Virus record (IMG/VR): IMGVR_UViG_2693429524_000019
Span: 1 to 32,064 of that record
Length of the DNA stretch: 32,064 nt
Origin: a virus
Lineage: Duplodnaviria; Heunggongvirae; Uroviricota; Caudoviricetes
Strand: one strand, 5' to 3'
This document shows, piece after piece, positions 1,093-32,064 of this stretch (the stretch's first letter is position 1; every line of letters begins with the position of its first letter). The notes beneath the pieces were generated by a model. The model worked only from the letters and a program-made list of their open reading frames with translations. It was not told the DNA's origin and searched no databases. Position numbers and translations under genes: made by a program.

Positions 1093-1397
1093 TTTTCGTC
1101 AACAAACGACAAAATCCTTTAGAATTAATGTGTTAAATAAATTTATGCTCATCTTTTAATCCCTAACACATACCATTACATATTAATACATTCAATTAGT
1201 TACCATTTTTTTCGAGTTTTTTAGAGAAATTTTCGGGAATATTTCAGGTCAATCCATGCATACACAAGCAATTCCTGTATTGAATAATTCCGTAGCAATT
1301 ATGTAAAATCACCTTCGGCTGATTTTCATTCAAACTCGCGCTATCGAACGTCCATCAGCCAGCCGTGGCACGTTCTTGCATACGACGTGCTGCGGTT
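1093..1397. other. AT-rich non-coding prophage arm between att core and invertase gene (probable attP arm with integrase/IHF arm sites)
   Basis: ~300 bp, very AT-rich, no ORF above 20 codons, sits at the tail-fibre end of the prophage where lambdoid P-arms lie. Confidence 0.3.
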
Positions 1398-1987
1398 TCA
1401 TTTATCTCCGACCGGAAACTTCTTATACAAAGTCGATACGCCAACATCATAGATGATCTCCACATTCTGGCGATGAACTCCTGATGCAATTAGTCGCCCG
1501 GCCTGCGCCCATTGTTCTGATGAAAGTTTGGGACGGCGACCGCCAATTCGTCCCTGTGCGCGAGCAGCTTCCAGTCCAGCTTTTGTTCGTTCAACAATCA
1601 GTTCACGCTCCATTTCAGCCAGGGCACCCATGACATGAAAAAAGAAACGGCCATTGGGGTGCTGGTATCAATACTGTCAGTCAGGCTTCGGAAATTCACG
1701 CCACGCTGACGCAACTCTTCTATCAGCGTAACAAGATGCCGCATACTGCGCCCCAACCTGTCCAGCTTCCAGACAACCAGAGTGTCTCCTGCCGATAGTG
1801 TCCTGAGCAGTTTTTTAAGCCCCGGTCTGTCGGACTTAGTGCCACTGATTTTATCCTCAAAAACCCGCTCACATCCCGCGCAGTTCAGTGCATCACGTTG
1901 CAGATCGGTGTTCTGGTCATTTGTTGATACGCGTACATAGCCAATAAGTATGTTAAATCCCCCTGGTAAAAGCAGGAATGATGCCAT
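1398..1987 (-). pseudogene. pin: DNA invertase of the Pin/Gin/Hin serine recombinase family, disrupted
   Basis: two ORF fragments (1598..1987 and 1398..1631) together align to recalled Pin/Gin: ..IGYVRVSTNDQNTDLQR.. then ..MGALAEMERELIVERT..GRIGGRRPKL..; canonical start codon is ATA (the peptide reads ILIGYVRV); a one-base loss near 1648-1651 (ATGGCC where ATGGGCC is expected) shifts the frame between the catalytic and HTH domains. Confidence 0.8.
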
Positions 1988-2005
1988 TTGCTTGTTATTT
2001 CTGCA

Positions 2006-2031
2006 TTTTCATAAACGTTGGTTTGGGAGAA
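2006..2031. repeat. candidate invertase crossover site A (gix/pix-like), adjacent to pin
   Basis: TTTTCATAAACGTTGGTTTGGGAGAA resembles recalled gix/hix consensus (AAACC-NN-GGTTT core); shares core TTGGTTT with site B in inverted orientation. Confidence 0.4.
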
Positions 2032-2487
2032 GGTGCTCCAGCTATTGGCGTTCCGTTCTTCTGGCCGTCCGCTGCAATGCCAAATACTGTAATCGACAGC
2101 TGGTCCAGTATGGTGTTTTTGAAGTTCAACGGGGCGAAATTTTCTGCCTCTGATTACCCTGTGCTGGCAAAAGTGTTTCCTTCGCTGGTATTACCTGAAG
2201 CCCGCGGTGATTTCATTCGTATCTGGGATGATGGCCGTGGTGTTGATAGTGGCCGTGCGTTACTTTCCGCGCAATCAGACGATTTCAAAACGCACGAGCA
2301 TAAATTTTTAGGGCTAAATGGAAGTGGCAGTAATGTAGTGTTTGGCACCGTTTCGAATGCTTCTCCATTATATACCAGCGGCGTTAGTCAGCCGGGTGGA
2401 AGTGCTTTGCCCGCTTTTCAAAACCCAGGCGGTACTGAAACGCGTCCCCGTAACATCGCATTCAACTTTTTAGTAAGGGCTAAATAA
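2021..2487 (+). CDS. alternative tail-fibre C-terminal segment (Sv'), silent orientation, no own start
   Basis: reading frame continuous from crossover core; encodes GAPAIGVPFFWPSAAMPNTVIDSWSSMVFLKFNGAKF...GDFIRIWDDGRGVDSGRALLSAQ, a conserved tail-fibre C-terminus of the Mu S / P1 S / e14 StfE type. Confidence 0.6.
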
Positions 2488-3080
2488 TGAAACCTGTTTT
2501 TGATGAAAATGGGCTGGCTACAGTGCCGGGCGATATGCGTTGTTTTTATTATGATGCAGTAACGTATGAATATACGGGCTGGTCTGATGAATATATTAAT
2601 ACTGGCGTAAGTATGCCCGCCTGTTCCACTGGTATTGACCCTGGCGAATACATTCCGGGGAAAGTGGCAGTATTTACGGGTAAGGGATGGAGCCATGAAG
2701 AAGACCACCGCAATGAGACTGTTTACTCAATCGAAAATGGCGCAGCTGTTACAGTGGATTATATCGGTGCCATCAAAGACGGTTATGTCACGCTTTCACC
2801 GTTAACGCCATACGATAAATGGGATGGTGAGAAATGGGTGACCGATACTGAGGCACAGCATAGCGCTGCAGTAGACGCGGCAGAAGCACAGCGTCAGTCA
2901 CTGATTGATGCTGCAATGGCTTCCATCAGTCTGATTCAGCTGAAATTGCAGGCCGCACGTAAACTGACGCAGACAGAAACAACCCGACTTAACGCCGTGC
3001 TGGATTACATTGACGCGGTGACTGCAACAGATACCAGCACCGCGCCGGATGTCATCTTGCCTGAACTGCCGGAGGCGTAG
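2487..3080 (+). CDS. tail fibre assembly protein (U'/Tfa), silent orientation
   Basis: 197 aa; ATG overlaps the Sv' stop (TAATG); C-terminal ..LNAVLDYIDAVTATDTSTAPDVILPELP is a typical Tfa C-terminus; convergent with the other tfa. Confidence 0.7.
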   Translation: MKPVFDENGLATVPGDMRCFYYDAVTYEYTGWSDEYINTGVSMPACSTGIDPGEYIPGKVAVFTGKGWSHEEDHRNETVYSIENGAAVTVDYIGAIKDGYVTLSPLTPYDKWDGEKWVTDTEAQHSAAVDAAEAQRQSLIDAAMASISLIQLKLQAARKLTQTETTRLNAVLDYIDAVTATDTSTAPDVILPELPEA

Positions 3081-3489
3081 GCCATTCAATATCTGGAGCA
3101 CTGGAGGTATCAACCAGTTCCAGTGCGTCCAGATAATCCAGCCACAAATTATATTGCGCCAGTTCCTCACCTTTCAGACGACCAATAGCTGCTTTACCTG
3201 GCCATTGCCTGTTATTCATGTGCTCATTGGCAGTATCTATGCGCCGCTGACGCTCGTATTCTGCCATCTTTATCAGTTCTTCAGGTGCCAGTGGCGGAAT
3301 ATCACTCCATACGGGATAACCATCATCACCCGCAATCCTCATTTTTCCCTCCGGTGGCTTCTGAAATGCAACAAAAGTCTCTTCATCAACTTCCACGCCT
3401 TTTTCGGGCCACATCCCTGCCGCCTCATAGTCTGCCTGCATTGCTAATGGATAAAATGCGTTAGTTACTGCGTCGTATAAATATTTCAT
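3052..3489 (-). CDS. tail fibre assembly protein (U/Tfa), expressed orientation
   Basis: 145 aa, SD AGGAAG upstream, immediately follows tail-fibre gene; C-terminus ..NLWLDYLDALELVDTSSAPDIEWPTPP is paralogous to the U' C-terminus. Confidence 0.7.
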   Translation of the reverse strand: MKYLYDAVTNAFYPLAMQADYEAAGMWPEKGVEVDEETFVAFQKPPEGKMRIAGDDGYPVWSDIPPLAPEELIKMAEYERQRRIDTANEHMNNRQWPGKAAIGRLKGEELAQYNLWLDYLDALELVDTSSAPDIEWPTPPAVQAR

Positions 3490-3491
3490 TT

Positions 3492-4640
3492 TTATCTTCC
3501 TATTGCTATCCAGTTGGCACCAGCTCCTTTGACAGCCCCCTGACGCGATGACGCGAGATAAAAACCATAGTTATTTATCTTACTTGTCGAGAATGCCGGG
3601 CAGTCTTCTGCACTGGTTGGCGTATCGAAAGAACATGCGACGCGATAATCATCGGTAAAAGGTATCGGGAAATTAACAGCAGTTGGGTAGCCAGCAGAGC
3701 CTGAAATGTTCGTACCAAACTGCATGATGGTGCCGTCAGGAAATTTCACCCAGCCAGGACCTGATGTGAAATTAGCCATTGTCGGAACCTGATTAGCCCC
3801 ATTTCCCAGGTTTGCTGTTGCTGCTGAGCCAAGCCCTAAATTTGCTCGTGCGTCGGCAGCTGTGGTCGCGCCGGTTCCGCCCTGACTAAGCGCTAGAGCC
3901 ATTGGCGTTCCGATATTGTTAAGTACGCCCCATGCACCACTATCATTCACAAACAGCCGATAGTTATCGCTTTGTGAAGTAATGTATGTGTCAACTAAGC
4001 CTTGTACTAAACGATTGACGCCAAGGTTACTACGCGCTTCTGCCAGAGAAGTCCCGCCAGTTCCCCCCTTAGACAGAGGTACTGTGTTCTCCGTTGCCAC
4101 ATCTCCCAGACCAAGATTACTACGCGCGCTGGCAGCATCTTTTGCACCTGTACCGCCAGATGATAATTGCAGTGCAATAGTCCCTGCCTGGGGACTTATT
4201 GAATATGCCCCCCATCCATCATTCTGCACAAAAACATAAGATTTTTTGTTTGGTGACCAAATGCGTGTTTCGTTAGTGTCCTGATCACATCTTTCTAAAC
4301 CAAGATTTTCGAGAGCCGTTTTCACCGTGCCGTCCGATTTGATATCGCCAAACGGATTCTTGCGGCTCAGGTATTCAACAGCAAACCCCGATCCCAGCAA
4401 TTCAACAAAACCGGACAGATCACCATTATCAAGCACATCCCGTTGCGTTTTATCACTTACAAACTGGGCCAGAGCTGCAGCAATAAAGCTGGCCTGCCGA
4501 ATAACCTTATTGACTTGCGCACTGGATGCTTTACCTGCTGTAAATCCGGATAAAAGCGCAGGCAACGCTTCCCATTCCTCCTGCGACATAACATTGGCAT
4601 TTTTACCCGTTGCGAATGCTTTAAAGTCATTTTTTGCCAT
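3492..4640 (-). CDS. tail fibre protein (S): constant N-terminal part plus variable C-terminal part
   Basis: 382 aa from ATG at 4640 (TGATG coupling with upstream gene); three repeats of LSxGGTG..(A/S)xxARxNLGLG; last gene of the baseplate operon before the tfa. Confidence 0.75.
   Translation of the reverse strand: MAKNDFKAFATGKNANVMSQEEWEALPALLSGFTAGKASSAQVNKVIRQASFIAAALAQFVSDKTQRDVLDNGDLSGFVELLGSGFAVEYLSRKNPFGDIKSDGTVKTALENLGLERCDQDTNETRIWSPNKKSYVFVQNDGWGAYSISPQAGTIALQLSSGGTGAKDAASARSNLGLGDVATENTVPLSKGGTGGTSLAEARSNLGVNRLVQGLVDTYITSQSDNYRLFVNDSGAWGVLNNIGTPMALALSQGGTGATTAADARANLGLGSAATANLGNGANQVPTMANFTSGPGWVKFPDGTIMQFGTNISGSAGYPTAVNFPIPFTDDYRVACSFDTPTSAEDCPAFSTSKINNYGFYLASSRQGAVKGAGANWIAIGR
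4290..4316. repeat. candidate invertase crossover site B inside the tail-fibre gene
   Basis: plus strand TCTTTCTAAACCAAGATTTTCGAGAG; reverse complement carries the same TTGGTTT core as site A; encodes ..ENLGLER.. in S, frame-compatible with ..NVGLGEG.. at site A. Confidence 0.4.
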
Positions 4641-5320
4641 CAGAGTAATACTCCCCATGCCCCTACATCAAAACCACTGATAAATTCGTTATCCATATCA
4701 AAACCAAAAAATTTTGAGCCTTCCGATGGGGTTTCCACCGAAGGTGTTTCAATGCCACCCGCCCATACCCCGGCGGCTTTTACTGTGAGATACCCCTGTT
4801 TAATTGCCGCAATTAACTCACGCGATACATCTGAAATATCAGTATCAGGAAAGACCCAGACCGATATCGTCATGTCCTGGTTATCGACTATCTGCATTCG
4901 CAGCCCGGATCCTGCTGTTGCAGCGTCAAGAATTGCCGGAAGCGAATCATTCCGTCCATCCCAGTTATTAATCGCAATCTTCGCTTTAAGAATGACACGA
5001 TAAGTTTCATCGCTGAGATACATGTATCCTGAATCAGGATCGTATGGTCCCTGCCATACCCCCTGATCATATCCAAGCCCGTCGGTATCCCAGCTGAAAT
5101 AGACACCTGAGATAGGCTGGCTGACAACACGGCTACGTCCGATCCACAATCCAAGAATGTCAAGTTGCACACCAACCGCAGAGTCAATATCAAATGCAGT
5201 AATCAGCCCTCTGGTGGCAGCCGCAACATCAATAAGTGGCCGGGTCATCAGATCAACATGCGCAAGAAATTTAGGTTTGGTGGCGTGGTAGTTCGTGATT
5301 AGTTCGGTGTATTTGCTCAT
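4640..5320 (-). CDS. tail/baseplate protein (P2 gpI / Mu gp48-like)
   Basis: 226 aa, ATGA overlap with the J-like gene upstream, position between baseplate J and tail fibre. Confidence 0.55.
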   Translation of the reverse strand: MSKYTELITNYHATKPKFLAHVDLMTRPLIDVAAATRGLITAFDIDSAVGVQLDILGLWIGRSRVVSQPISGVYFSWDTDGLGYDQGVWQGPYDPDSGYMYLSDETYRVILKAKIAINNWDGRNDSLPAILDAATAGSGLRMQIVDNQDMTISVWVFPDTDISDVSRELIAAIKQGYLTVKAAGVWAGGIETPSVETPSEGSKFFGFDMDNEFISGFDVGAWGVLL

Positions 5321-6516
5321 GACTCCACCGTTATAACGATATTTTCCGGGGTACAGGACGCAGATTCGTTGTATCTGATATCAATGTTTGATGACGACAA
5401 AGCCCCCGGGGATTTCCCAATCGTCAGTTCCTGAATATCGTAATAGCGTGCATTCCCGCCACTCACCACGCCAAGATTCGCCGGTGAGTAAATGCGACTT
5501 AAAAGGACCGAATCACCAATCATCAGACTATTGATATAGTCGGAAATAGCCTGCTGGATCTGCTGCCCTATCTGTGAGGTATAACCCGTAAAAACTTTTA
5601 ATTTAATCCGAGCGTAAACAGGCACATCACTGGAACGCGAGAATTTGATTACATGGGGATTGCCGTATTTATCCGGAACCGTAACGGATGTTGTACCGTG
5701 AGTGGCTGTCCCCTGGCCTTTATTTCCTCTGATAGCCTGAGCAATATCCGTCACATCACCGCCATCCACAATTACAGCAACAGAGTGTGGCGGTAACCCG
5801 TTACCGTCCTCCGAACCAGTATCGTTTTCATAGAGTTTGTGGCGGGTTACACCGGTAACATTAGAAACAGCACCATCCAGTGCTTCAAATGGGGTTATTG
5901 ATGGCAACGCAACACTTTGCGACTGGCGGATACGTAACTCCGCATCAGTTTCTGCTGGAGTGCCTACAGTAGCTGCAGCAGGATTGGTTACCGAAACCCA
6001 GCCACGGGTTGGCGTATTAATTTCAGTGATAGTTCCAGCCAGCGCCGCCACTGCACCACTGACGGAACATTTTGCGGTCACCATCACTGTACCATCCACG
6101 CCGACCACCACTGAAGCAGGCAAACGCCATATCACATTATTACTGTCTTTCACGCTGCCATTAATGATGGTTGTTCCGGCAGTTCCTGTAAGAAGCAAAT
6201 CAACCGTAGAATTCGTCGCGCCTTTACGTGAAATACCATTTATTTTCACGTTACTGGTCAGTGCAGCCCCATAGCCGGTTGCCGGTGAAAAACAGTTGTA
6301 GACAGTTATCGCCATATTATTGGCATCATGAATCGCCAGCGCCATCAGAGCCACCATCTGGCCGTCTTTGCTGTCCGGTTCGAGGTAGGCATCACTGCCA
6401 TAAATCTGCTGAAAATAGCTAATCAGGGTGCTGAGTATCGTCTGATAATCAGGCGCACTGATCCCCTCCGCGGTTACCTTTGCAGATAAACCGAGAGAAT
6501 CAAGGTTCAGAGCCAT
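5317..6516 (-). CDS. baseplate J-like protein (Mu gp47 / P2 gpJ family)
   Basis: 399 aa, translationally coupled to flanking genes, position and size typical of baseplate wedge J. Confidence 0.65.
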   Translation of the reverse strand: MALNLDSLGLSAKVTAEGISAPDYQTILSTLISYFQQIYGSDAYLEPDSKDGQMVALMALAIHDANNMAITVYNCFSPATGYGAALTSNVKINGISRKGATNSTVDLLLTGTAGTTIINGSVKDSNNVIWRLPASVVVGVDGTVMVTAKCSVSGAVAALAGTITEINTPTRGWVSVTNPAAATVGTPAETDAELRIRQSQSVALPSITPFEALDGAVSNVTGVTRHKLYENDTGSEDGNGLPPHSVAVIVDGGDVTDIAQAIRGNKGQGTATHGTTSVTVPDKYGNPHVIKFSRSSDVPVYARIKLKVFTGYTSQIGQQIQQAISDYINSLMIGDSVLLSRIYSPANLGVVSGGNARYYDIQELTIGKSPGALSSSNIDIRYNESASCTPENIVITVES

Positions 6517-6869
6517 TACGCCTCCGATGTAACAGTCGTTATTCCATAAAGAGTGTCGATTTCAGCGGAAAACATGACACGTCGGGTCGTGGTATCCACC
6601 GTCGTATTGAAAGAGAGGATTGATTTAACGCCCCGCGTTTCGAGGATGCGCTTACGGATCGCCAGGTTGTAGGTTTCCGGCTTCTGCTTACCGAGTACGG
6701 ACTGGATCCACGGAGTCCCCTCGGTGGTGTCGAGAAACCATTGCCCATACCACAATTCGAATCGCGTTTTTACCGCCTGCGCCACGGCCTCCGGTGAGTT
6801 AATCAGCCAGGTGTCATCACCGCTGCCAAAGGTGTAATCGCCATCGGCGTCTTCACGTCTGTATCGCAT
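6516..6869 (-). CDS. baseplate protein, GPW / gp25-like (Mu gp46)
   Basis: 117 aa, coupled between V-like and J-like genes; size and position match the GPW/gp25 family. Confidence 0.6.
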   Translation of the reverse strand: MRYRREDADGDYTFGSGDDTWLINSPEAVAQAVKTRFELWYGQWFLDTTEGTPWIQSVLGKQKPETYNLAIRKRILETRGVKSILSFNTTVDTTTRRVMFSAEIDTLYGITTVTSEA

Positions 6870-7621
6870 CAGTTTACCCCATCGGTATTGCTTCCACCGC
6901 GCTGAACACCGCCATGAGTGTGCGTATCATCGATTGGCTTGCCGTTAGCCTTCACGCTACCCAAAAACTCAACAGCACCAGTGATTTTTGAAGCCACACC
7001 AGAAACAACAGCCCCCACCATGCCTCCCATCCAGGTTAACAGGCCATGAATGGTTACTTTCTCAGAAAAATCAGCCAGAGGGGCAACCACATCAAGGCCC
7101 CCCGGAGCGACAATTTTAATTTTCCTGGTATCAGGATTAAGCTCAAAATAGGTGCTGCCGTCATCACTACGCAACTGTGTGGCACTGGTATTAATACCGC
7201 TAATCTTCCTTGCCTGCGACTGGGGACCGACAATACAAAACGCATCCGATAAATCATGCATTCTGTCATCGACCGGCTCCTGTATCCCGCCACTCTGCCA
7301 CCAGAAATCAATACAACGATCGGCAAAAATCACCAAACATTCATCACCGGCTTTAACTGGAAACGTTAGCGTACAGCCTCCGCCGCGCGGGAATACCACT
7401 GGTACATCCACCAGCAGGGGTAATGTCGTCGACTGGTTGATTCCATTTGAGTCCGGCTCATAGCCTTTAATCGCAGGTTGAACAACCACTGTTACCGTGT
7501 CCGGATCAAATGACTGGACGATGCCGGGCATAGAAACACGCAGCGCCGACATGACAGAGCCAGCAAGTCTTACATCGGCCTGTTCTTTGCTACCAAGTTG
7601 AGCGCTTAAAGAAACTGGCAT
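6869..7621 (-). CDS. baseplate assembly protein V / central spike (Mu gp45 family)
   Basis: 250 aa, SD GGAGG 8 nt upstream; glycine-rich C-terminus; first gene after the moron terminator. Confidence 0.55.
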   Translation of the reverse strand: MPVSLSAQLGSKEQADVRLAGSVMSALRVSMPGIVQSFDPDTVTVVVQPAIKGYEPDSNGINQSTTLPLLVDVPVVFPRGGGCTLTFPVKAGDECLVIFADRCIDFWWQSGGIQEPVDDRMHDLSDAFCIVGPQSQARKISGINTSATQLRSDDGSTYFELNPDTRKIKIVAPGGLDVVAPLADFSEKVTIHGLLTWMGGMVGAVVSGVASKITGAVEFLGSVKANGKPIDDTHTHGGVQRGGSNTDGVN

Positions 7622-7639
7622 TCATATGCCTCCAGAAAG

Positions 7640-7665
7640 CAAAAAACCCACTCGAAGGCGGGTTT
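7640..7665 (-). terminator. intrinsic terminator downstream of the moron genes
   Basis: minus strand AACCCGCCTTCGAGTGGGTT hairpin (7-bp stem, one GU) followed by TTTTGCTTTC. Confidence 0.6.
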
Positions 7666-7729
7666 TATGTAGCTAGTTTTCTTTCCATGGTGATAGAAGC
7701 AATTACCGTGGAAAGTTAATTTAGCGAAC

Positions 7730-8071
7730 TCATTTCTTATTTTCAGATAGCACCAATCTACATTCTTCTTTTTTTAGAATCGTAAGAGATTGGCCACTAT
7801 CGGAAAAAGAATAACCGCACTCGGAAGCGAGTTGACGCAGAGCTATTTCACCATAACTATCACCATGTTCTTTCATTAACTCATCACCAAAATCCGCCTC
7901 ACGACCATTAGATACAGCGTCCATAGCCGCATTAGAAACAGCCCTATTTGTGATCTCTCTCTTGATGATGTAGTTATCAGCCAGTGAGGTGTGCAGTCCA
8001 AAAAAATCATTCAGCGTTCCACCTACACAAATTGTTGGAGTCAACACTGCGAGAAGGAATATTTTCTTCAT
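7730..8071 (-). CDS. secreted (Sec signal peptide) protein of unknown function, moron
   Basis: 113 aa, N-terminus MKKIFLLAVLTPTICVGG is signal-peptide-like; lies in an AT-rich block unlike flanking phage genes. Confidence 0.5.
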   Translation of the reverse strand: MKKIFLLAVLTPTICVGGTLNDFFGLHTSLADNYIIKREITNRAVSNAAMDAVSNGREADFGDELMKEHGDSYGEIALRQLASECGYSFSDSGQSLTILKKEECRLVLSENKK

Positions 8072-8106
8072 TACAAATGTCTCTTATAGCTGATTTCTTA
8101 AAAAAA

Positions 8107-8349
8107 TTAATTACAGTACGTTGTGCCAGTATTGGTCGTCTGGCATTCACGATGTACTGCACTCCCATTAATCGTTCCTGTGGTATACGTAGTACCTGTA
8201 TTGGTTGTATAAGATTCTGTTTTAACTGTAGAACCACTACTGTCTGTACCAGTACAGTAAGTTGTTCCTGTATTTGAAGTGGTGCATGTTACCGCAGCCA
8301 CAGAAGACAAAGTCACAAAATATACCAGTAATAAGATCCATTTAAGCAT
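8107..8349 (-). CDS. small secreted Thr/Gly-rich cysteine-containing repeat protein, moron
   Basis: 80 aa from ATG at 8349 (overlaps the stop of the upstream baseplate gene); signal peptide MLKWILLLVYFVTLSSVAA; mature part has TNTGTTY(C/T) repeated three to four times; AT-rich codon usage. Confidence 0.5.
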   Translation of the reverse strand: MLKWILLLVYFVTLSSVAAVTCTTSNTGTTYCTGTDSSGSTVKTESYTTNTGTTYTTGTINGSAVHRECQTTNTGTTYCN

Positions 8350-9382: not shown

Positions 9383-9384
9383 TG

Positions 9385-9687: not shown

Positions 9688-9690
9688 GAA

Positions 9691-12977: not shown

Positions 12978-12980
12978 GTA

Positions 12981-13421: not shown

Positions 13422-13431
13422 TCACTTCCCC

Positions 13432-19364: not shown

Positions 19365-19378
19365 GTGTTACCTGCGAT

Positions 19379-23588: not shown

Positions 23589-23645
23589 GAATTTTTCCTC
23601 TTAGTGACATTATCGAAGCCCCTTATCAAAGGAGCTTCTGTAATG

Positions 23646-24827: not shown

Positions 24828-24830
24828 TAA

Positions 24831-25190
24831 TTACTCCTTATGGGCACCGAACTTGTTACCGATGACCCTCATTGCCGCACCACGAATAGCATCAACACCA
24901 ATCAGCCCCACCCCACCACCAATGGCAACAGAAAGTGATTTAGGCCATCCGACATACTCAAGCGCGGATGCAAAGGTCAGCGTCAGGGCACCACAGAGCA
25001 AAATCTCAAGCGTTTTTCGTTTCCAGCCCCCACCACCGCCAAAATAGGCGATGCGCAAACCAGCCATAACGATCGACATAATCACTGCACCCAGCGGTGT
25101 GTCTCCACGCCACCAGCTCTGAAACAACTCCAGCCAGTCCGGCCAGGTATTTGGGTTATGAGGCATTTCATCATCTCTCACCTCGCACAT
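24831..25190 (-). CDS. holin, three predicted transmembrane helices (class I), possible dual start
   Basis: ATG at 25190 and second ATG at 25166 eight codons later; three hydrophobic segments; immediately upstream of the endolysin. Confidence 0.6.
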   Translation of the reverse strand: MCEVRDDEMPHNPNTWPDWLELFQSWWRGDTPLGAVIMSIVMAGLRIAYFGGGGGWKRKTLEILLCGALTLTFASALEYVGWPKSLSVAIGGGVGLIGVDAIRGAAMRVIGNKFGAHKE

Positions 25191-25289
25191 ATCGCGGGTG
25201 CAAATTGAGGGAATAAAAAATCCCCGAATATTCCAGGAGCGGAAACGGGGAAAGGCGTTGCACTAAATGGGCCTGTCTGCGGCCTTAAA

Positions 25290-25318
25290 TAAAAAAACCC
25301 CGGCAAATGCCGAGGTCA
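25290..25318 (-). terminator. strong intrinsic terminator ~100 bp upstream of the holin gene
   Basis: minus strand CCTCGGC-ATTT-GCCGGGG (7-bp stem) followed by seven T. Confidence 0.65.
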
Positions 25319-25527
25319 GTTAATCGTTGCCGCTGTGAGTGCCGCGGTGCACTATCTCTTTATCAGGCTACTTACGCGTTAAACCGGGTGCCAACCGTAA
25401 CTCAGTGATGCTTTACGCTTCCTCTCCCTCACTACGTCGCCATGGGAGCCCGACCAGATTAACGCTGTCGTCACGTTGCCAATATATGGCATCCAATGCA
25501 TTCTTTTTATTTAGCTATTTCATTTTT

Positions 25528-25558
25528 CTATCCGTCAGAAACAACAAAACCCGCTCAA
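25528..25558 (-). terminator. intrinsic terminator downstream of the ORF6N-like gene
   Basis: minus strand AACCCGCCATTGAGCGGGTT followed by TTGTTGTTTCT. Confidence 0.5.
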
Positions 25559-25662
25559 TGGCGGGTTCTGGTAAAGTTCATGCGCTTGGTTCGCCTCGCG
25601 ATACAGCTTTGCGAAGCGTACCGAAATTGAAGCAGTTTATGGCTAAAATTGCAAGAACTTTT

Positions 25663-26214
25663 TTAAAGCTGCATCAGCCTTTCCACCAGTTTATCTCTGC
25701 GAACAACAAACCAACCATTGGCTCTCGCCAGTTCCAGCCATGACTCAAGGGAAATAACAATATCATCATCCCGCAACTGAATTGTGGAAACAGTGACACC
25801 GCCTCGCTGATAACAGAGAACTCGCGTGTCGTAACTTTTCTGGCATGAAGCTGGCGCTGACAGATCCTTTTGTCTGAAATAGCAGTCTTCCAGTTTTTCG
25901 AACACTTCCCACGCCTGATCGGTTTCCAGCATTTTGGCGTGGCGGGCTGCTCCGCGTTCTGTCCAGAGTATAAGCGAGCGGGTTTTGGGCGAAATTTGTA
26001 ACTGACTTACTGTCAGTCGCAAATTTTTAAGCTCCTCGCCCATAACCTTAAAAAAATGTTTACCTTCAATAAAACGCACAGAGTTGCGCTTATGATTTTG
26101 CTGGATACTGTTTACATCCGCGCCATAGAGGTGCGCCAATAGTTCTGTGGTAATAACTGGGATCTGATTATGGGTAATTGGGGAAAGGTTTTCGACAGAA
26201 ATTTGAGTCGTCAT
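25663..26214 (-). CDS. ORF6N/antirepressor-like DNA-binding protein (moron between Q and lysis genes)
   Basis: 183 aa, SD GAGGG; N-terminal ..ITTELLAHLYGADVNSIQQNHKRNSVRFIEGKHFFKV.. resembles ORF6N-type phage antirepressor N-domains as recalled. Confidence 0.4.
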   Translation of the reverse strand: MTTQISVENLSPITHNQIPVITTELLAHLYGADVNSIQQNHKRNSVRFIEGKHFFKVMGEELKNLRLTVSQLQISPKTRSLILWTERGAARHAKMLETDQAWEVFEKLEDCYFRQKDLSAPASCQKSYDTRVLCYQRGGVTVSTIQLRDDDIVISLESWLELARANGWFVVRRDKLVERLMQL

Positions 26215-26375
26215 GATAACGCCCTCTGGTTGATGAATTTAACTATCACCACCGTCAGGTTCCAATCATTGGGTGGTGAGACGTACAGGGTTGGAACTAC
26301 CGGATCAACCAACCGGCGAGCCTTTCGGCTCCCCCATACGCCCCACCATAATTCAGATGTGCGTGTGCTTACGAC

Positions 26376-26400
26376 AATAAAAAACACGCTCGCGGCGTGT
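26376..26400 (-). terminator. intrinsic terminator ~90 bp downstream of Q (tR'-like candidate)
   Basis: minus strand ACACGC-CGCGA-GCGTGT followed by TTTTTATT. Confidence 0.5.
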
Positions 26401-26488
26401 ATCTGTCGCGGTTGAATATCCGGGGTTCCAATCCCGACGCCAGATTTTGCTGGCGCGTGAGGAATATAGCCCCGGATAACAGATTGAG

Positions 26489-27043
26489 TCAACAGACGGT
26501 TTTTGAATCCCCGGAAGAGAATGCATCACGCATCGGCAGATAGAGCATAAACTCTGCCATTTTCAACCACGCATCTATGCGATTACGGCACGTGGCGTAA
26601 CACCACTCAGGGTGTGCGTCATTCAGCAATTCAGCCATTTTTCGCTTAGTCATCCCCCTCCCTTCATATCGTTGCCGGAGGATACAAATCAATCCTGGGT
26701 GTTCTGCCAGCACTTCACTAATCACACGATCAATGCATAACGCCTCTGCATCAGTACAATGCACCAGCCAGCTTTTTTGCTTGCCGTTGATCATATCCCG
26801 CAAAAAAGCCTCAAGTTCAGGTTTGTCCAGCCCTGCTTTTTTCATCCTCCGGAGCGCCTCGTTAATTGCCGTTTTTGTCAGCTTTTTAGAGGTCAGCAAC
26901 TGGTTAAACATATTTCCCGTCTTACCGCCGCCAATATACGACCAGCGCCCCCACATGCGCAGTTTTCCCTGAATCCAGACACTTTCCAGCGTGGTGAGAC
27001 GAAGGTGTTCCCCGCTTTTGCCTGTATTTGTTGGGTAAATCAT
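26489..27043 (-). CDS. late-gene antitermination protein Q-like
   Basis: 184 aa from ATG at 27043 (ATGA overlap with the ybcO-like stop); ..KLRMWGRWSYIGGG.. and the position upstream of the lysis genes fit the Q family; family assignment from memory only. Confidence 0.55.
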   Translation of the reverse strand: MIYPTNTGKSGEHLRLTTLESVWIQGKLRMWGRWSYIGGGKTGNMFNQLLTSKKLTKTAINEALRRMKKAGLDKPELEAFLRDMINGKQKSWLVHCTDAEALCIDRVISEVLAEHPGLICILRQRYEGRGMTKRKMAELLNDAHPEWCYATCRNRIDAWLKMAEFMLYLPMRDAFSSGDSKTVC

Positions 27044-27330
27044 AAATAACCTTCCTTTCTCCAGATTTCTTGCGTACGAAAAACACCTTCTGCATGCATC
27101 AGGCGTAATTCTTCTTTGGTGTAATCGCTGGTTTTTACCCGCCCGTCGATTAAATCGTGGCATGAGCTGCAGGCAATCGCTGCCTGCATATCGTGTGGTT
27201 TTGTCGCTGTTCCGCACGTCCCCGCCAGCCTGTAATGCGCCAGCACAGATGTTTCGGGATTGTGATTGCAGTAGCCAAGAATTCTGACGGTGCACATCTG
27301 CCCCCGCGCCGCTTTACGTAAATCCACCAT
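27040..27330 (-). CDS. YbcO-like protein (DUF1364, putative nuclease)
   Basis: 96 aa MVDLRKAARGQMCTVRILGYCNHNPETSVLAHYRLAGTCGTATKP..CSSCHDLIDG resembles recalled YbcO Cys pattern. Confidence 0.6.
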   Translation of the reverse strand: MVDLRKAARGQMCTVRILGYCNHNPETSVLAHYRLAGTCGTATKPHDMQAAIACSSCHDLIDGRVKTSDYTKEELRLMHAEGVFRTQEIWRKEGYL

Positions 27331-27929
27331 TACGCAAACTCCAGCAGCTGCGCGGCCACATTTTCGACTTCCTCCGGAGAGGAGAATTTACGGAACAGGA
27401 TCCAGTTCCACAGCACATTCAGTACGGCTTTATAAACCTGCTGAAACTCGGTTTCGTCCATATTCGCAAAAGCGATGGATTTCGCCCGACGCCCGTGGCT
27501 ACCGTCCGGATAAATATGCTCGGTGTAAAATCCGGCCTGAATGGTTACCCACTCGCGGAAAGCGTCAAACGACTTTAGCAATGCCGTATCCCGGGTTCTG
27601 CGTGTTGCAACTGTATTCAGATATTGCTCTGCGGCTTCGCTCAGAGCTGGCGTATGTTCCCGGCCTACTGATTCACACAGGTAATCAACGAATCCTGAAA
27701 CCAGTTTTCGTTCGCGAGGCGTGATCGCCCCTCCGACTGGAGTCCAGTAATCGAATCCGAGTTGCAGAAGTTTGAAAAAACGCTTATGGAATGCGTAGTT
27801 ACGAACGCGCTTAAAATCAGCGTGTATCCACTCACCTATTTTGATTTGATGCAAAAAATCGCAACTCTCCGGCGTCGCCGGGAGAAGTAATCCGGAAGAG
27901 GTTTGTTTGACCAGTTGTATATGCGCCAT
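27330..27929 (-). CDS. nin-region hypothetical protein
   Basis: 199 aa, SD GGAG, coupled (TAATG) to the ybcO-like gene. Confidence 0.4.
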   Translation of the reverse strand: MAHIQLVKQTSSGLLLPATPESCDFLHQIKIGEWIHADFKRVRNYAFHKRFFKLLQLGFDYWTPVGGAITPRERKLVSGFVDYLCESVGREHTPALSEAAEQYLNTVATRRTRDTALLKSFDAFREWVTIQAGFYTEHIYPDGSHGRRAKSIAFANMDETEFQQVYKAVLNVLWNWILFRKFSSPEEVENVAAQLLEFA

Positions 27930-28000
27930 CGTAGTTCTCCGCTGGCGCAGTAGAATGGGTGTTCAGCCCGTTATGTAGTATACCAGAATTAATGCCAATA

Positions 28001-28252
28001 CTAACAGGATGCTCTGACTCGCAATTCATCCAGCAGTTTATCATTTCCCATAATGTCACTTACCCTCATCGGTAAAAAAATTGCCTTTCGACCATTACGA
28101 TACATCATTGATTTTGGGGTTTCAGGGAAGTAATCCATTTCGACTATAACTGACAGGTCATCACGACGTATGACTGCATATTTGCTACTAAATAGTTTCT
28201 TTATTTTTTCCACGATGCCTCCAGGTTTATAAGTACAAACGGTTATATCCAC
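28001..28252 (-). CDS. small protein, possibly Rem-like (Qin-type synteny); start is GTG
   Basis: 83 aa; lies between hokD-like and Q as rem does in K-12 Qin; sequence identity to Rem not verified. Confidence 0.3.
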   Translation of the reverse strand: MDITVCTYKPGGIVEKIKKLFSSKYAVIRRDDLSVIVEMDYFPETPKSMMYRNGRKAIFLPMRVSDIMGNDKLLDELRVRASC

Positions 28253-28395
28253 ATAGAGACAAAAATATTAATCTGAAAAATATTTATTTCACGTCGTATA
28301 TTTGATTATTTAATGTGCAGGTGCAATGACTTTTATTTTTTGTTGTGTATATAATCAAATATATGGTTATTTTTCACCCTGCGTATTCAGCGCGC

Positions 28396-28420
28396 AACAA
28401 AAAACCCGCCGAAGCGGGTT
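28396..28420 (-). terminator. intrinsic terminator at the 3' end of the hok transcript
   Basis: minus strand AACCCGC-TTCG-GCGGGTT followed by TTTTTTGTTG. Confidence 0.55.
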
Positions 28421-28488
28421 AAGTGCGGGTGCGTTGAGGATGCCTGACACATGAGAGGTGGCGAGGGATTTTTCCCCCGCCTGGTCTC

Positions 28489-28644
28489 TTACTCCTCAGA
28501 TTCGTAAGCTGTGAAGACAGCGACCTCCGTCTGGCCGGTACGGATTCGTACCTCGCAGAGGTCTTTCCTCGTTACCAGTGCCGTCGCTATGACGGTTAAA
28601 CAGATGACGATCAGGGCGATTAACATCGCCTTTTGCTGCTTCAT
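28489..28644 (-). CDS. hokD: Hok/Gef family type I membrane toxin, HokD (RelF)-like
   Basis: 51 aa MKQQKAMLIALIVICLTVIATALVTRKDLCEVRIRTGQTEVAVFTAYESEE, near-identical to recalled HokD; SD AAGGAGAAG upstream. Confidence 0.8.
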   Translation of the reverse strand: MKQQKAMLIALIVICLTVIATALVTRKDLCEVRIRTGQTEVAVFTAYESEE

Positions 28645-28854
28645 AGCCTGCTTCTCCTTGCCTTTCGGCACGTAAGAGGCTAACCTACATTTGTGAGACA
28701 TAGATTGGGCCTCAGATTAATGTTAAGCGTCCTGCAAGACGCGTAATGTTAACTGGGGCTTTTCTCTATCTGCCGTTGGTGTTCATGCCTGAGGCAGATA
28801 GCCTCAAGCACCCGCAGCAATTCTACTTAACTCTCCTTTTCCCGCAAACCGTTT

Positions 28855-28938
28855 TTATCCCCAGCGGCAAATCGAATACACAATCAGCGCCACCGCCATT
28901 GCGATTCCTACCGTTGTGAATGCTTCAGGCCAGGTCAT
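28855..28938 (-). CDS. candidate 27-aa hydrophobic peptide (single TM), translationally coupled to upstream gene
   Basis: MTWPEAFTTVGIAMAVALIVYSICRWG; ATG overlaps the stop of the 191-aa gene (ATGA); GGAGG 10 nt upstream; not in the ORF track because it is under 60 aa. Confidence 0.3.
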   Translation of the reverse strand: MTWPEAFTTVGIAMAVALIVYSICRWG

Positions 28939-29510
28939 CGTAAAATATCCTCCGCGCTTATCAGTCCGTTTCGCTTCAGGTAGACCATCGCCTTCTCCGG
29001 TAATTTGCAGTTCGGCTTCGCTTTCCTCAATTGGCTAGCCAGTTGTTTAATCAGCATTGTTAATTCCCGTACCTGAACGTCCCCTTTGGTATCCTCATTG
29101 GTGAGGATACCATCGCCTTTCCCCTGAAGCATGGCGGCGCAGCAGGCGTTCCATGAGATTTCCTGAAGGGAGCGACGAATCTGTGTGCTGCATATACTCC
29201 TCCCTGACTCCTGGCTGTTAAACCATGTTTCAAATTCCGGCACTACCGTCGCTGGCGGGGCGGTGTAAAGTGGAACAACTCGCCCTCCCCATTGCTTAAC
29301 ACTACTCTCAGCGAACACTAAATGCTCAGCCCGATAATACCCGGGGGCATCAATATCTTTTCTTTCGCTATCCCACATGTAAACCACCGGCTCTGCTTCC
29401 AGCGATGCCAAAGCAATCCGTGCCACTTCCATTTGTTCGCTACGAGTAAGCCCGTTTTCAAGCGGATTTTTAATGAACAATTCAATACGTTCTTTGGTGA
29501 TAGCGTTCAT
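28935..29510 (-). CDS. hypothetical phage protein (paralog A)
   Basis: 191 aa, SD AAGGAA; shares RIALASLEAEPV and PLY..PPA motifs with the next gene. Confidence 0.5.
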   Translation of the reverse strand: MNAITKERIELFIKNPLENGLTRSEQMEVARIALASLEAEPVVYMWDSERKDIDAPGYYRAEHLVFAESSVKQWGGRVVPLYTAPPATVVPEFETWFNSQESGRSICSTQIRRSLQEISWNACCAAMLQGKGDGILTNEDTKGDVQVRELTMLIKQLASQLRKAKPNCKLPEKAMVYLKRNGLISAEDILR

Positions 29511-29513
29511 GTG

Positions 29514-29936
29514 TCATTCCTTAACCTGCAACTGCTTCTTAACCAGTTTACGTAGATGTGCCACAGCCATAGAAAGAGTTTCCACCGCTCGTTTATCCAG
29601 CTGTGGGGACAGAGACACCAGTTCGTTTATTGCGATCTCAATTCCCTGTGCCTGCACTATGGGAGCTGGCGGCACACGATACAGCGGAATTACACGACGC
29701 GGGTCTGCGTATTTATCTGGAGGACAAGGTAATAAATAACCTAAACCAATTTGCTCAACATCTCGCAGTTCCTCGTCATCAGTCCATGCAACTGGTTCTG
29801 CTTCCAGCGAGGCCAGCGCGATACGAAACGCATCAGCAAGCAGACTGTTTGATGATTGGTTATCGTGCGCCGGGTCGCTCAGGAAGCCAGTGATGAATGA
29901 TTTAATCTCCGCGCTTTCTCTGGTAATGGTGGTCAT
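29514..29936 (-). CDS. hypothetical phage protein (paralog B)
   Basis: 140 aa from ATG at 29936 with SD AAGGAAA; contains RIALASLEAEPVAW and PLYRVPPAP. Confidence 0.5.
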   Translation of the reverse strand: MTTITRESAEIKSFITGFLSDPAHDNQSSNSLLADAFRIALASLEAEPVAWTDDEELRDVEQIGLGYLLPCPPDKYADPRRVIPLYRVPPAPIVQAQGIEIAINELVSLSPQLDKRAVETLSMAVAHLRKLVKKQLQVKE

Positions 29937-29937
29937 T

Positions 29938-30156
29938 TCAGTTTTCCTTATATGGATTAATTTTATTGTGCAGTGCGTTGAACGACGCCCATACCACGTC
30001 GTTATACAATTCAATAACGGGCTCAATTACTTTTCCGATTATCCAGGCCAGTAATAGCGGGGATATCGGTATCATCAACACGATAAACAGAATGAGAAAC
30101 AAAAATTCTGTCGCTCTACTTTTTCGCGGATATTTTTTTCTGAATAATGTAGTCAT
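29938..30156 (-). CDS. small membrane protein (basic N-terminus plus one TM helix)
   Basis: 72 aa MTTLFRKKYPRKSRATEFLFLILFIVLMIPISPLLLAWIIG..; AT-rich. Confidence 0.4.
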   Translation of the reverse strand: MTTLFRKKYPRKSRATEFLFLILFIVLMIPISPLLLAWIIGKVIEPVIELYNDVVWASFNALHNKINPYKEN

Positions 30157-30188
30157 TTCTTACCGCCCTTTCGGGCGGCCTCCTGACA

Positions 30189-30401
30189 TTAATCGTTGTG
30201 ATAACTCATAGCTTCATTTGCAGCATCAACTGGATCAACATCCCACCAGCAATAATTTGGGTCGGCTCCTTCAGGTGTCCACGGCTCTAATTCATTTTTT
30301 GCCGCATTCTCGTCGCCAGTAATTTTAAAAATCTGCTCAGAAAATTTCCTCACCCACTCGTTATATTTTTCCGCATTAATGGTTTTCTGTGTATTTAACA
30401 T
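30189..30401 (-). CDS. small acidic hypothetical protein
   Basis: 70 aa, SD GGAGG 9 nt upstream, AT-rich codon usage. Confidence 0.4.
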   Translation of the reverse strand: MLNTQKTINAEKYNEWVRKFSEQIFKITGDENAAKNELEPWTPEGADPNYCWWDVDPVDAANEAMSYHND

Positions 30402-30451
30402 AGATATACCTCCAGTTAAGGATTTGATTTTATTTACAGTGCTAAATTTAT

Positions 30452-30808
30452 TTATTCAGTTCTGGATTTTGTCGCCCTGCGTATCCGCGCTTTCGCGTTA
30501 CGCTCAATCTGAATTAACTTTTCTATATTTTTCCGCCTTTCCTGTTCCTCCTGGCGCAATAGCCTTACATCATCTGCCAGTCTGGTTTCTCTTTTCGCCA
30601 CTGAGAGCATCCAGTCAAACAGCTCCACAACTGCACCGCAGATTTTACAGCGGACCTGACGCTCTTTTTCGTCAACCCGGACAGAAGCGTGATGGCAGTA
30701 TGGTCTTTCCGATGGCTCATAAAGAAAATTAACCTGATCACGTGGGTCATCCTCCTTTACCGGAAATAAAACAATATTACTTAACTCATCTTCTGGTTTT
30801 ATTTGCAT
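30452..30808 (-). CDS. hypothetical protein with Cys-x2-Cys zinc-ribbon-like motif and coiled-coil tail
   Basis: 118 aa from ATG at 30808 with SD AAGGAGAGGAG; ..RCKICGAVVELF.. Confidence 0.45.
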   Translation of the reverse strand: MQIKPEDELSNIVLFPVKEDDPRDQVNFLYEPSERPYCHHASVRVDEKERQVRCKICGAVVELFDWMLSVAKRETRLADDVRLLRQEEQERRKNIEKLIQIERNAKARIRRATKSRTE

Positions 30809-31340
30809 GCTCCTCTCCTTTGATGCGAATGCCAGCGGCGCGTGGCACATTAACTTCCACGATGCGCACAGTTGGTTTGTACATCTCAATCGCTGTCAGC
30901 CAGTCAGCGCCAGTCATGCGCTTTTCTGCATCGCCATTAGTCCAATTAACCGGTACACCAATAGCCTTCATCGCTATTTCTATTTCCCCGGCAATGGCGC
31001 TTTTTCCGCAACCAGTAAAACCAGAAACAACGACAAGAACTTCGCCTTTGGCTGGTTTTATTTCCCGTGCTTCCAGTTCTGCAATGCGCTTCTCTGCGGC
31101 TTCCAGCGTTCTGCCCAGCTCGCCATTCTTCTTCTCCAGCGATTCAATTCGGTCAGCCTGCTGGTTGATATGGTTGTCCTGTGCGGACCATGCTTTGTCT
31201 TTGGCTTCCCGTTCATCCAGCAGTTCCAACACAACCTGAGGTGTGACTTTCATGCGAAATGCCAGCAATTTTTGTGGTGTGGCTGCGATTTTTATTGCTT
31301 CTGCCACATCACGCAGTACCTGGTAATTAATTTCACTCAC
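30786..31340 (-). CDS. ead/Ea22-like early-region protein (coiled-coil)
   Basis: 184 aa, GTG start with SD AGGAGG; central coiled-coil ..LEKKNGELGRTLEAAEKRIAELEA.. Confidence 0.35.
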   Translation of the reverse strand: MSEINYQVLRDVAEAIKIAATPQKLLAFRMKVTPQVVLELLDEREAKDKAWSAQDNHINQQADRIESLEKKNGELGRTLEAAEKRIAELEAREIKPAKGEVLVVVSGFTGCGKSAIAGEIEIAMKAIGVPVNWTNGDAEKRMTGADWLTAIEMYKPTVRIVEVNVPRAAGIRIKGEEHANKTRR

Positions 31341-31758
31341 TGACTACCTCCTGAAAATTACCCTGATAAAACGCCAGTACACGCTGCATAACTTCGCTTT
31401 TCCGGCACTCGCGACAGATTATGTTCTGACGCCTGTCATAGCGGCGTATTTCTCCATCCGGTAATGACCAGATAAGGTCCGGATCAACCACAGCCGTTTT
31501 TTTCACCTTTGCCCTGGATAGTTTTTTGCGGGCGTTTTGCCAGCCCTTACGCGCCTGCTCAGACGGGAATAATCCGTAGCCTGAATTGTAAACATCACCA
31601 CTGGCGACCAGTTCTCTGGCGAGAGTGCTTATGTAATACCTTGATGCACCGGTTTTAACCTCCAGAGCCCGTAACGTCTCGCGACCGCTCAGACGTACAA
31701 GTTCAACAACCTGCCCTTTAATTTTTTCTCGCTCTTCTGGTGTAAATACTTTTGCCAT
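31333..31758 (-). CDS. hypothetical early-region protein
   Basis: 141 aa from ATG at 31758 with SD GGAGG; track start at 31773 is TTG. Confidence 0.45.
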   Translation of the reverse strand: MAKVFTPEEREKIKGQVVELVRLSGRETLRALEVKTGASRYYISTLARELVASGDVYNSGYGLFPSEQARKGWQNARKKLSRAKVKKTAVVDPDLIWSLPDGEIRRYDRRQNIICRECRKSEVMQRVLAFYQGNFQEVVSE

Positions 31759-31773
31759 AGGTGCCTCCGGCAA

Positions 31774-32064
31774 TCACTTTTCCGACACAATACGACTGGA
31801 GGAATCGAAAATATGTCGAACAATATCCCGGTGCTTGTTCAGCTCCCGCAGCGCGGCGCAGACTCGCTCCCACTTCTGGACATGATTTTTCGCCCGACGC
31901 AGTTCGCGGTTTGCCATATGCAGCGATGGTAAAACCAGGTCATCCGCTCGCGTTTCAGTAAACGATGGCAGCGACTGCACAATGTCCGCCACAGTTTCTG
32001 TTTTAATATCTTCCTGTGTTGCAGCTTCCTGTACTGGTAACGCAACACATGCAGGCTGAGGAAA
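31774..32064 (-). CDS. 3' portion of an early-region gene that starts beyond the right edge of the window
   Basis: minus-strand frame open without stop from 32064 down to 31774 (at least 97 codons). Confidence 0.4.
   Translation of the reverse strand, partial: FPQPACVALPVQEAATQEDIKTETVADIVQSLPSFTETRADDLVLPSLHMANRELRRAKNHVQKWERVCAALRELNKHRDIVRHIFDSSSRIVSEK

Follow-up and report, generated by a model that had tools for sequence, protein, structure and literature searches.

Virion genes resembling those of Salmonella phage SEN34 in a mosaic lambdoid prophage at the ryeA/ryeB locus of Escherichia coli

To which group of phages do the head and tail genes of a prophage belong when they follow lambda-like late control genes? 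This question is raised by IMGVR_UViG_2693429524_000019, a viral DNA stretch of 32,064 nucleotides (Caudoviricetes) that was analysed over its whole length and is called the window here. An earlier note, made from the sequence alone, had read the stretch as a mosaic prophage with lambdoid regulation and lysis genes and a Mu/SfV-like head and contractile tail. We compared each window protein by tblastn with phages Mu, SfV, P2, lambda and SEN34, the K-12 e14 region, the prophage of GCEC19 and vB_EcoM-611R5 (611R5). The window very probably covers some three quarters of the genome of a temperate mosaic phage of the SEN34 kind, that is, a lambdoid phage with a myovirus virion module, located at ryeA/ryeB in E. 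coli.

Affiliation of the morphogenesis genes

The proteins of region 4640-23588 were 47-96% identical to those of Salmonella phage SEN34 (Brunovirus) and had the same gene order; 25 consecutive proteins were collinear with SEN34 genes 3-26 over this range of amino acid identity. Most proteins of the region were 97-100% identical to their counterparts in GCEC19, in 611R5 or in both. None of them gave a tblastn match (E ≤ 1e-3) to Mu, SfV, e14, P2 or lambda. The portal was 100% identical to that of 611R5 and 92% identical to that of SEN34, and the tape measure was 98% identical to that of GCEC19 and 79% identical to that of SEN34. Identity to SEN34 was 57-91% for the wedge and spike proteins (4640-7621) and 74-96% for the neck genes, with the small STY1053-family open reading frame (ORF) at 62% over 64 amino acids.

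A 2017 description of SEN34 presents a temperate phage of Salmonella whose tail is contractile under the electron microscope and whose replication and regulation genes are lambda-like; its authors put it forward as prototype of a new lambda cluster, 'temperate 26' (PMC5261728). It forms plaques and is 40.7 kb long. SEN34 and the window share the structural gene order from the portal to the DUF2612 protein and the layout of Q, lysis, terminase, head, contractile tail and fibre, with lambdoid early genes. In the window, the lambdoid control genes (Q, nin-like genes and an S/R/Rz cassette) stand upstream of the terminase. SEN34 differs from the window in TerS and TerL, in its lysis genes and in its early region, which is of the lambda O/P type in SEN34 and of the Rac type in the window; in addition, SEN34 has neither an invertible fibre cassette nor pin. 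The SEN34 DNA alignment covered ~13.8 kb of the ~31-kb window region at 68-82% identity. The two phages are thus probably below the ~70% whole-genome DNA threshold, and membership of the same genus (Brunovirus) is not likely.

Closer relatives were found among E. coli prophages. GCEC19 aligned with 28 kb of the window at 94-98% DNA identity and shares its integration site and Rac-like early region. The DNA of 611R5 was 97.5-97.8% identical at 4297-7424 and 11115-21559, with a diverged hub-to-tape-measure stretch between them, whereas its terminase, early region and integration site were all different. At least 80% of bases 1-24000 was present, at ~96-98% identity, in 21 complete E. coli genomes; prophages of this kind lie at pphA-yebY in GCEC19 and in ~20 further complete genomes. 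The window differs from GCEC19 and 611R5 in its expressed fibre C-terminus (3115-4296), an insert (7665-8402), accessory genes (29066-31346) and a broken pin gene; the DNA comparison marked the same three intervals as the patches that vary among relatives. We found no literature on vB_EcoM-611R5.

The window TerL was only 36% identical in amino acid sequence to the TerL of SEN34 and of 611R5 (tblastn), and the nearest DNA relatives of TerS/TerL were Klebsiella phages (84-86% identity). Judged by these comparisons, the terminase is a packaging module swapped relative to SEN34 and 611R5. The joint of the swap was located within ~90 bp of the portal start. When the window, 611R5 and SEN34 were compared, one virion module was found joined to at least three early regions and two terminases.

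More distant relatives were identified by sequence searches against PDB, which matched entry 7kh1, cyanophage Pam3 (8hdr, 8hds, 8hdt) and Pseudomonas phage E217 (8env, 8fvh). The search output gives no organism for 7kh1, which we take to be Vibrio phage XM1. Direct phmmer matches reached 1e-39 for the sheath (7kh1, 1.2e-39; Pam3, 3e-23) and 3e-37 for the portal (Pam3 portal, 2.7e-37; also E217 gp19). The tube matched that of Pam3 (1e-9), the capsid matched Pam3 capsid 8hdt, and the wedge proteins were related to 7kh1 gp16/gp17, E217 gp44 and Pam3 gp22. These three phages share the Pfam families of the cement, tube, sheath, plug, hub, portal and capsid proteins with the window, although the sequence relationship is distant. 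XM1, Pam3 and E217 are virulent or environmental phages that are not known to have a lambdoid control module.

The Mu/SfV/e14 assignment was then examined at the level of protein family, pairwise similarity and DNA. The proteins of Mu and SfV fell into the Pfam families Phage_sheath_1, Tail_tube PF10618, GpP-like, Mu_Gp45, GP46 and Mu_Gp48 (GpP-like, GP46 and Mu_Gp48 were found in both phages; Mu_Gp45 was tested on SfV only). The head proteins of Mu belonged to Portal_Mu, Mu-like_Pro and Mu-like_gpT, and those of SfV to the HK97-type families Phage_portal, Peptidase_S78 and Phage_capsid. In Pfam searches, no structural protein of the window belonged to any of these Mu/SfV sheath, tube, hub, gp45, gp46, gp48, portal, protease or capsid families. 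The window families were Terminase_3, Phage_portal_3, Phage_Mu_F, DUF2213, XM1_gp53 / Phage_cement, PF09950, DUF4054, Phage_tail_terminator_9, DUF3383, KPP10_Orf10, Phage_TAC_15, Dit_like, Pam3_gp18, E217_GP41, PF18352 (together with the GpV apex motif), Baseplate_J and DUF2612.

Pairwise BLASTP found no similarity between the window sheath and the Mu sheath (L) (E = 0.6) and nothing between the MuF-domain protein and Mu gp30. The Baseplate_J protein was 26% identical to Mu gp47 (E = 2e-6); the Baseplate_J family is general to contractile systems. The DNA in common with the window was limited to the lysis cassette in SfV (23885-25201, 91%), to gin/pin in Mu (69%) and to pin and part of the fibre assembly gene in e14. 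P2 had no DNA match to the window and no structural protein match by tblastn, with the endolysin alone matching (55%), and a P2-type morphogenesis module was rejected on the lack of structural and DNA matches. Mu/SfV/e14 morphogenesis was likewise ruled out by tblastn, blastn, Pfam searches on both sides and pairwise BLASTP, save for the MuF domain, Baseplate_J, the pin and fibre cassette and the lysis cassette. As SfV lacks a MuF gene and its head is of the HK97 type, a 'Mu/SfV-like head' is not a coherent category.

In summary of these likenesses, the group of Mu, SfV and e14 has in common with the window a contractile tail, the MuF domain (in Mu only), a Baseplate_J wedge protein, a Gin/Pin invertible fibre segment, with a 26-bp site identical in e14, and an S/R/Rz/Rz1 cassette of the SfV type. 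All three differ from the window in sheath, tube, hub, wedge, portal, protease and capsid, which come from other families. By sequence and family comparison, the morphogenesis module of the window is of SEN34 type, with XM1, Pam3 and E217 as structural relatives, and its sheath, tube and baseplate genes predict a contractile-tailed particle.

Much of the earlier description was borne out by these results. The right-to-left gene order that it gave, from nin-like genes and Q through lysis, terminase, head and tail genes to the fibre and invertase, was reproduced by the Pfam, PHROG and tblastn assignments, and every long ORF of 3052-32064 was on the minus strand. We also agree with its view of a single mosaic prophage with a contractile tail, an invertible tail-fibre segment (a cassette of the Mu G / e14 P type was found) and, as far as the window reaches, lambda-like regulation and lysis, in view of the Q-family antiterminator, S-family holin and lambda R-like endolysin. 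In its comparison with SfV, e14 and Mu, the mosaic, contractile and invertible features stood, whereas the Mu/SfV-type morphogenesis, head and contractile tail alike, gave way to the SEN34 type; the module is neither siphovirus nor P2-type, the two affiliations that the note had named as evidence against its own. Its gene list lacked three baseplate proteins in 8342-10341 (the Dit-like protein, a plug like Pam3_gp18 and a hub like E217_GP41), five genes for the neck and head completion (14581-16640), the cement or minor capsid gene (17634-18140), the pair of genes inserted at 7730-8361, the RNA/antirepressor unit that separates Q from the holin (25663-26469) and the frameshift in the invertase.

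Integration site and tail-fibre switch

Prophage-free E. coli genomes, K-12 included, matched bases 1-1098 only (megablast of bases 1-1500 against 5,426 complete E. coli genomes), and the host flank at 1-936 was found in all 5,426. The start at 1093 given earlier is therefore no more than 6 bp from the junction. The rest of the window, ~1099-32064, is a single co-oriented prophage that runs on past the window end at 32064. The ~30-bp segment 1069-1098 was repeated at the opposite end of the corresponding GCEC19 prophage, beside its integrase, indicating that it is the attachment-site (att) core. The K-12 copy of this core falls within SraC/RyeA and SdsR/RyeB, two small-RNA genes that overlap each other (Rfam), and covers part of the RyeA start and of the SdsR terminator end. 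At the GCEC19 integrase end, the phage provides a near-identical replacement copy.

The prophage thus occupies the ryeA/ryeB small-RNA locus of E. coli, with pphA on one side and yebY on the other; the same locus is reported to be a hot spot of insertion in Salmonella. Integration into a tRNA gene was rejected, as the window has no tRNA genes and the site is the ryeA/ryeB locus instead. The GCEC19 element extends from pphA to yebY (~41 kb). Past the equivalent of the window end, it contains Rac-like genes (racR/ydaS-like, ydaT, ydaV, kil, recET and ralR), followed by the excisionase and integrase, which adjoin yebY ~11 kb beyond the window's right end. By this analogy, the earlier placement of the integrase end outside the window is well supported.

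The late operon ends in the fibre switch, which is laid out as a constant fibre N-terminus, a crossover site, a variable C-terminus and an assembly gene, followed by an opposed assembly gene and C-terminus, a second site and pin. The cassettes in opposite orientation occupy 1978-3489. The N-terminal 121 amino acids of the fibre were 97% identical to those of GCEC19 and 611R5, and the sequences diverged afterwards. The full expressed fibre cassette was present in 3 of the 5,426 genomes. The silent cassette was 66% (fibre) and 95% (assembly protein) identical in amino acid sequence to the expressed genes of 611R5, on the opposite strand, and a modelled inversion produced an in-frame 271-amino acid fibre collinear with the 611R5 fibre.

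Both the invertase gene and one of its sites carry lesions. In the pin gene, ATA stands at the position aligned with the start codon ATG of pinE from e14 and GCEC19, and a 1-bp deletion near 1651 splits the gene into ORFs of 129 and 77 amino acids; when one G was put back, a full Pin of 184 amino acids was obtained. In COL60J, which is 99.3% identical to the window over 1-1500, pin is annotated as 'frameshifted'. Since this copy is also frameshifted, the lesion is unlikely to be a sequencing error peculiar to the window. In the equivalent prophage of COL60J, an IS3-family element lies in the fibre gene just upstream of the same gp53-like C-terminus (L011, 10215-11443). The crossover site inside the fibre gene (4290-4315) has five mismatches to the site of GCEC19, 611R5 and e14; four of these are in the inner half-site, and the outer half and the central TT are kept. 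A scan allowing up to eight mismatches to the pin-proximal site found no second perfect crossover site. With a frameshift in its invertase gene and divergence in the inner half of one crossover site, the switch is probably fixed in one orientation, unless it is served in trans by another invertase of the Din family. A phage frozen in this way would rely on Pin supplied in trans by another prophage, or it would have a fixed rare fibre type (3/5,426). As more novel readings, which concern such details and not the prophage as a whole, we tentatively name two candidates, both doubtful: a host-range switch frozen by invertase loss and site decay, or the insert at 7730-8361, with its secreted proteins, as a new lysogenic-conversion or exclusion factor.

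Alternative explanations and the proposed late programme

The reading of the earlier note, a Mu/SfV/e14-type myovirus morphogenesis module joined to lambdoid control genes, could draw on a functional gene order that is the generic contractile-tail order, on the MuF-domain protein, on the resemblance of Baseplate_J to Mu gp47, on a pin protein 70-76% identical to Mu Gin and 87-90% identical to e14 Pin, and on the lysis cassette shared with SfV. These points are outweighed by a structural region without tblastn matches to Mu, SfV or e14, by the absence of the Mu/SfV structural families from the window proteins, by a sheath and a MuF protein without pairwise similarity to Mu proteins, and by common DNA confined to lysis, gin and pin/fibre assembly segments. 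At the sequence and family level such a module is already refuted, and we give this reading almost no chance. Hardly better placed is the explanation that two neighbouring elements were taken for one, namely a lambdoid remnant beside an independent myovirus-type element or tailocin. The mosaic joints are indeed sharp (21470-21560 and ~23600-23900), and 611R5 has the same structural module on a quite different early region. The GCEC19 element, however, is bracketed by one att-core repeat and has within it a single integrase/excisionase pair, beside yebY; the genes of the window are all co-oriented with no host genes between them; and plaque-forming SEN34 has the same joint layout of Q, lysis, terminase, head and tail genes. 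Head, portal and terminase genes are present, which excludes a tailocin. Two separate elements are therefore very improbable.

The third alternative, a decaying cryptic prophage that has lost particle production, is unlikely, although less so than the other two. It agrees with the frameshifted invertase pseudogene and the decayed crossover site, and with the close relative COL60J, which has the same frameshift together with an IS3 element in the fibre gene. In contrast, the head, tail and lysis ORFs are all full length, most being 97-100% identical to those of other prophages, and the invertase is dispensable for particle production. The phage may still be viable. Several observations weigh against our reading of the window as most of a temperate SEN34-kind mosaic. 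The immunity, replication and integrase part of this prophage lies outside the window, which limits any claim that it is complete or inducible; GCEC19 has the immunity region, replication genes and int-xis counterparts of this part. The window has no full-length match among the genomes of the collections, the best coverage being 91% of 1-24000 and 90% of 22000-32064. The 611R5 record has host genes at its ends and looks like a predicted prophage, so it does not prove that particles form. Other Din-family invertases in the same cell, e.g. e14 Pin, could still flip the fibre segment. Finally, neither a late promoter nor a Q-utilisation site was located, and a consensus scan of 25100-26600 gave no more promoter-like sites than shuffled sequence did.

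For the SEN34-kind mosaic, the following programme can be proposed from established lambdoid biology and the gene content. On induction, the Rac-like early region, mostly outside the window, would produce the Q-family antiterminator, and Q would allow RNA polymerase to read one long leftward late operon. This operon would provide an S holin, an R-type transglycosylase and overlapped Rz/Rz1 spanins, then a Terminase_3-type packaging enzyme. The head would be built from a Phage_portal_3 portal, the MuF-domain protein, a DUF2213 protease-scaffold, a cement protein and a PF09950 capsid. A contractile tail of the XM1/Pam3/E217 lineage would consist of a DUF3383 sheath and a KPP10-type tube, with the chaperone made via a −1 frameshift, followed by the tape measure, and would carry a simple baseplate of Dit-like protein, plug, hub, spike, gp25-like protein, Baseplate_J and DUF2612. 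The operon would end in a switch of the Mu G / e14 P type, which offers a choice between two fibre C-termini that are each paired with a separate assembly protein.

The combination of lambdoid control with a myovirus virion is real, is already known from SEN34 and is common in E. coli, and the prophage as a whole opens no new question. Its main value is for annotation, in that such prophages are best classed among the lambdoid myoviruses of SEN34 type instead of being grouped with Mu, SfV or P2. The window also illustrates clearly how temperate phages of enterobacteria exchange modules, with a fibre switch in common with e14 and Mu and a lysis cassette in common with SfV.

Lysis, late control and other features

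The coordinates of all features are given in Table 1.

Table 1. Features of the window and the basis of their assignment (aa, amino acids)
Feature	Coordinates	Strand	Basis or remark
Host flank, yebW	1-276	+	98% aa identity to GCEC19 gene
Host flank, pphA	277-936	-	98% aa identity to GCEC19 gene
att core, tail-fibre end of prophage, AAAAGAGACCGAACACGATTCCTGTTTTCG	1069-1098		K-12 homology stops at 1098
Pin/Gin-type serine invertase, pseudogene	1398-1987	-	Pfam Resolvase on N-terminal ORF; alignment to e14, GCEC19 pinE
Pin-proximal 26-bp crossover site, TTCTCCCAAACCAACGTTTATGAAAA	2006-2031	-	Exact match to e14, GCEC19, 611R5 sites; 0 chance matches expected
Silent alternative cassette: fibre C-terminus (to 2487), assembly protein (2487-3080)	2032-3080	+	Caudo_TAP
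Fibre assembly protein, expressed orientation	3052-3489	-	Caudo_TAP, 5.8e-33
Tail fibre, 388 aa	3492-4658	-	~115-aa constant N-terminus, variable C-terminus, Gp53-like_C
Second crossover site, degenerate, CTCTCGAAAATCTTGGTTTAGAAAGA	4290-4315	-	Inside fibre gene; located by alignment to relatives
DUF2612 protein	4640-5320	-	Pfam, PHROG
Baseplate_J protein	5317-6516	-	Pfam, PHROG
gp25-like protein	6516-6869	-	Pfam, PHROG
Central spike	6869-7621	-	Pfam, PHROG
Two small proteins (113 and 84 aa), N-terminal signal peptides	7730-8361	-	Between hub and spike
Baseplate hub	8342-9382	-	Pfam E217_GP41; phrog_196 baseplate hub
Plug	9385-9687	-	Pfam Pam3_gp18
Dit-like protein	9691-10341	-	Pfam Dit_like
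Tape measure, ATG at 12347	10341-12347	-	PhageMin_Tail, weak
Tail assembly chaperone	12525-12977, -1 extension to 12337	-	Phage_TAC_15
Tail tube	12981-13421	-	KPP10_Orf10, 8.8e-61
Tail sheath	13432-14577	-	DUF3383, 9.5e-100
Neck/head completion: tail terminator, head protein, Neck1, DUF4054, small STY1053-family	14581-16640	-	Phage_tail_terminator_9, DUF4054, phrog_222, phrog_939, phrog_6497
Major capsid	16681-17622	-	Pfam Major_capside PF09950
Cement / minor capsid	17634-18140	-	Pfam XM1_gp53 / Phage_cement
DUF2213 protease-scaffold	18144-19364	-	Pfam DUF2213; PHROG head maturation protease
MuF-domain minor head protein	19379-20152	-	Pfam Phage_Mu_F
Portal	20004-21470	-	Phage_portal_3, 6.9e-106
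TerL	21470-22981, start probably near 22873	-	Terminase_3, phrog_370
TerS	22839-23588	-	Terminase module; Pfam Terminase_3 and phrog_370 for 21470-23588
Rz/Rz1 spanins, overlapped	23812-24367	-	DUF2570, LysC; LysB/LysC-like type
Endolysin	24351-24827	-	phrog_90
S-family holin	24831-25190	-	Phage_holin_3_1
ORF6N protein	25663-26214	-	Pfam ORF6N
C4 antisense RNA	26269-26353	-	Rfam, above gathering score
IsrK	26379-26456	-	Rfam, above gathering score
a1/b1 targets of C4	26417-26469	-	Rfam, above gathering score
Q antiterminator	26489-27043	-	DUF1133, 4e-108; Phage_antitermQ at family threshold
YbcO	27040-27330	-	Pfam YbcO; nin position
DUF1367 protein	27330-27929	-	Pfam DUF1367; nin position
hok/sok type I toxin-antitoxin	28489-28813	-	HOK_GEF; Rfam sok, 116 bits
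Early accessory: two phrog_660 paralogues, DUF4014, Ead/Ea22-like, DUF977, end of DUF1627 gene	28935-32064	-	Pfam, PHROG

Q, the holin-endolysin-spanin cassette and the late structural operon follow one another in one direction on the minus strand, which is the lambdoid arrangement. The lysis proteins were 75-98% identical to those of SfV, the DNA identity noted above extending over ~1.3 kb; the endolysin was 87% identical to lambda R and 97% identical to SfV R, and the spanins were 75-85% identical to SfV spanins. The late-control and nin-like genes matched Rac phages, and the right third of the window had 87-93% DNA identity to Rac-type phages.

Between Q and the holin, the segment 25663-26469 resembles, by its Rfam and Pfam matches, an RNA-controlled antirepressor-like unit such as P1 immI or the Gifsy-1 IsrK-AnrP unit. 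A promoter-like site (26492-26463) was found ahead of the IsrK/C4 unit; terminator-like sites were also found. The ORF at 26211-26492 overlaps the IsrK and C4 RNA matches and, for this reason, is unlikely to be a gene.

The tail assembly chaperone gene contains a slippery heptamer, T TTT TTG, at 12576-12570 in the X XXY YYZ register; a −1 frameshift is usual for tail assembly chaperones. The 0 frame encodes 150 amino acids, and the −1 frame, which is open to 12337, just inside the tape-measure gene, encodes 213 amino acids. The −1 extension matched a gene annotated as DUF6889 in GCEC19.

The two-gene insert in the baseplate operon is low in G+C. Its proteins had no tblastn match in any reference phage; the 113-amino acid protein belongs to phrog_13007 (function unassigned), and the 84-amino acid protein, which fell into no PHROG family, contains three TNTGTTY repeats with flanking cysteines. 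A terminator-like hairpin with a T-run follows the insert at ~7640-7670. The insert was found in 7 of the 5,426 E. coli genomes, and relatives hold unrelated small genes in the same slot.

The early accessory region showed 87-94% DNA identity to Rac-type phages and GCEC19. Within it, two adjacent paralogues at 28935-30026 (phrog_660 / phrog_60) were only 38-55% identical to their GCEC19 counterparts.

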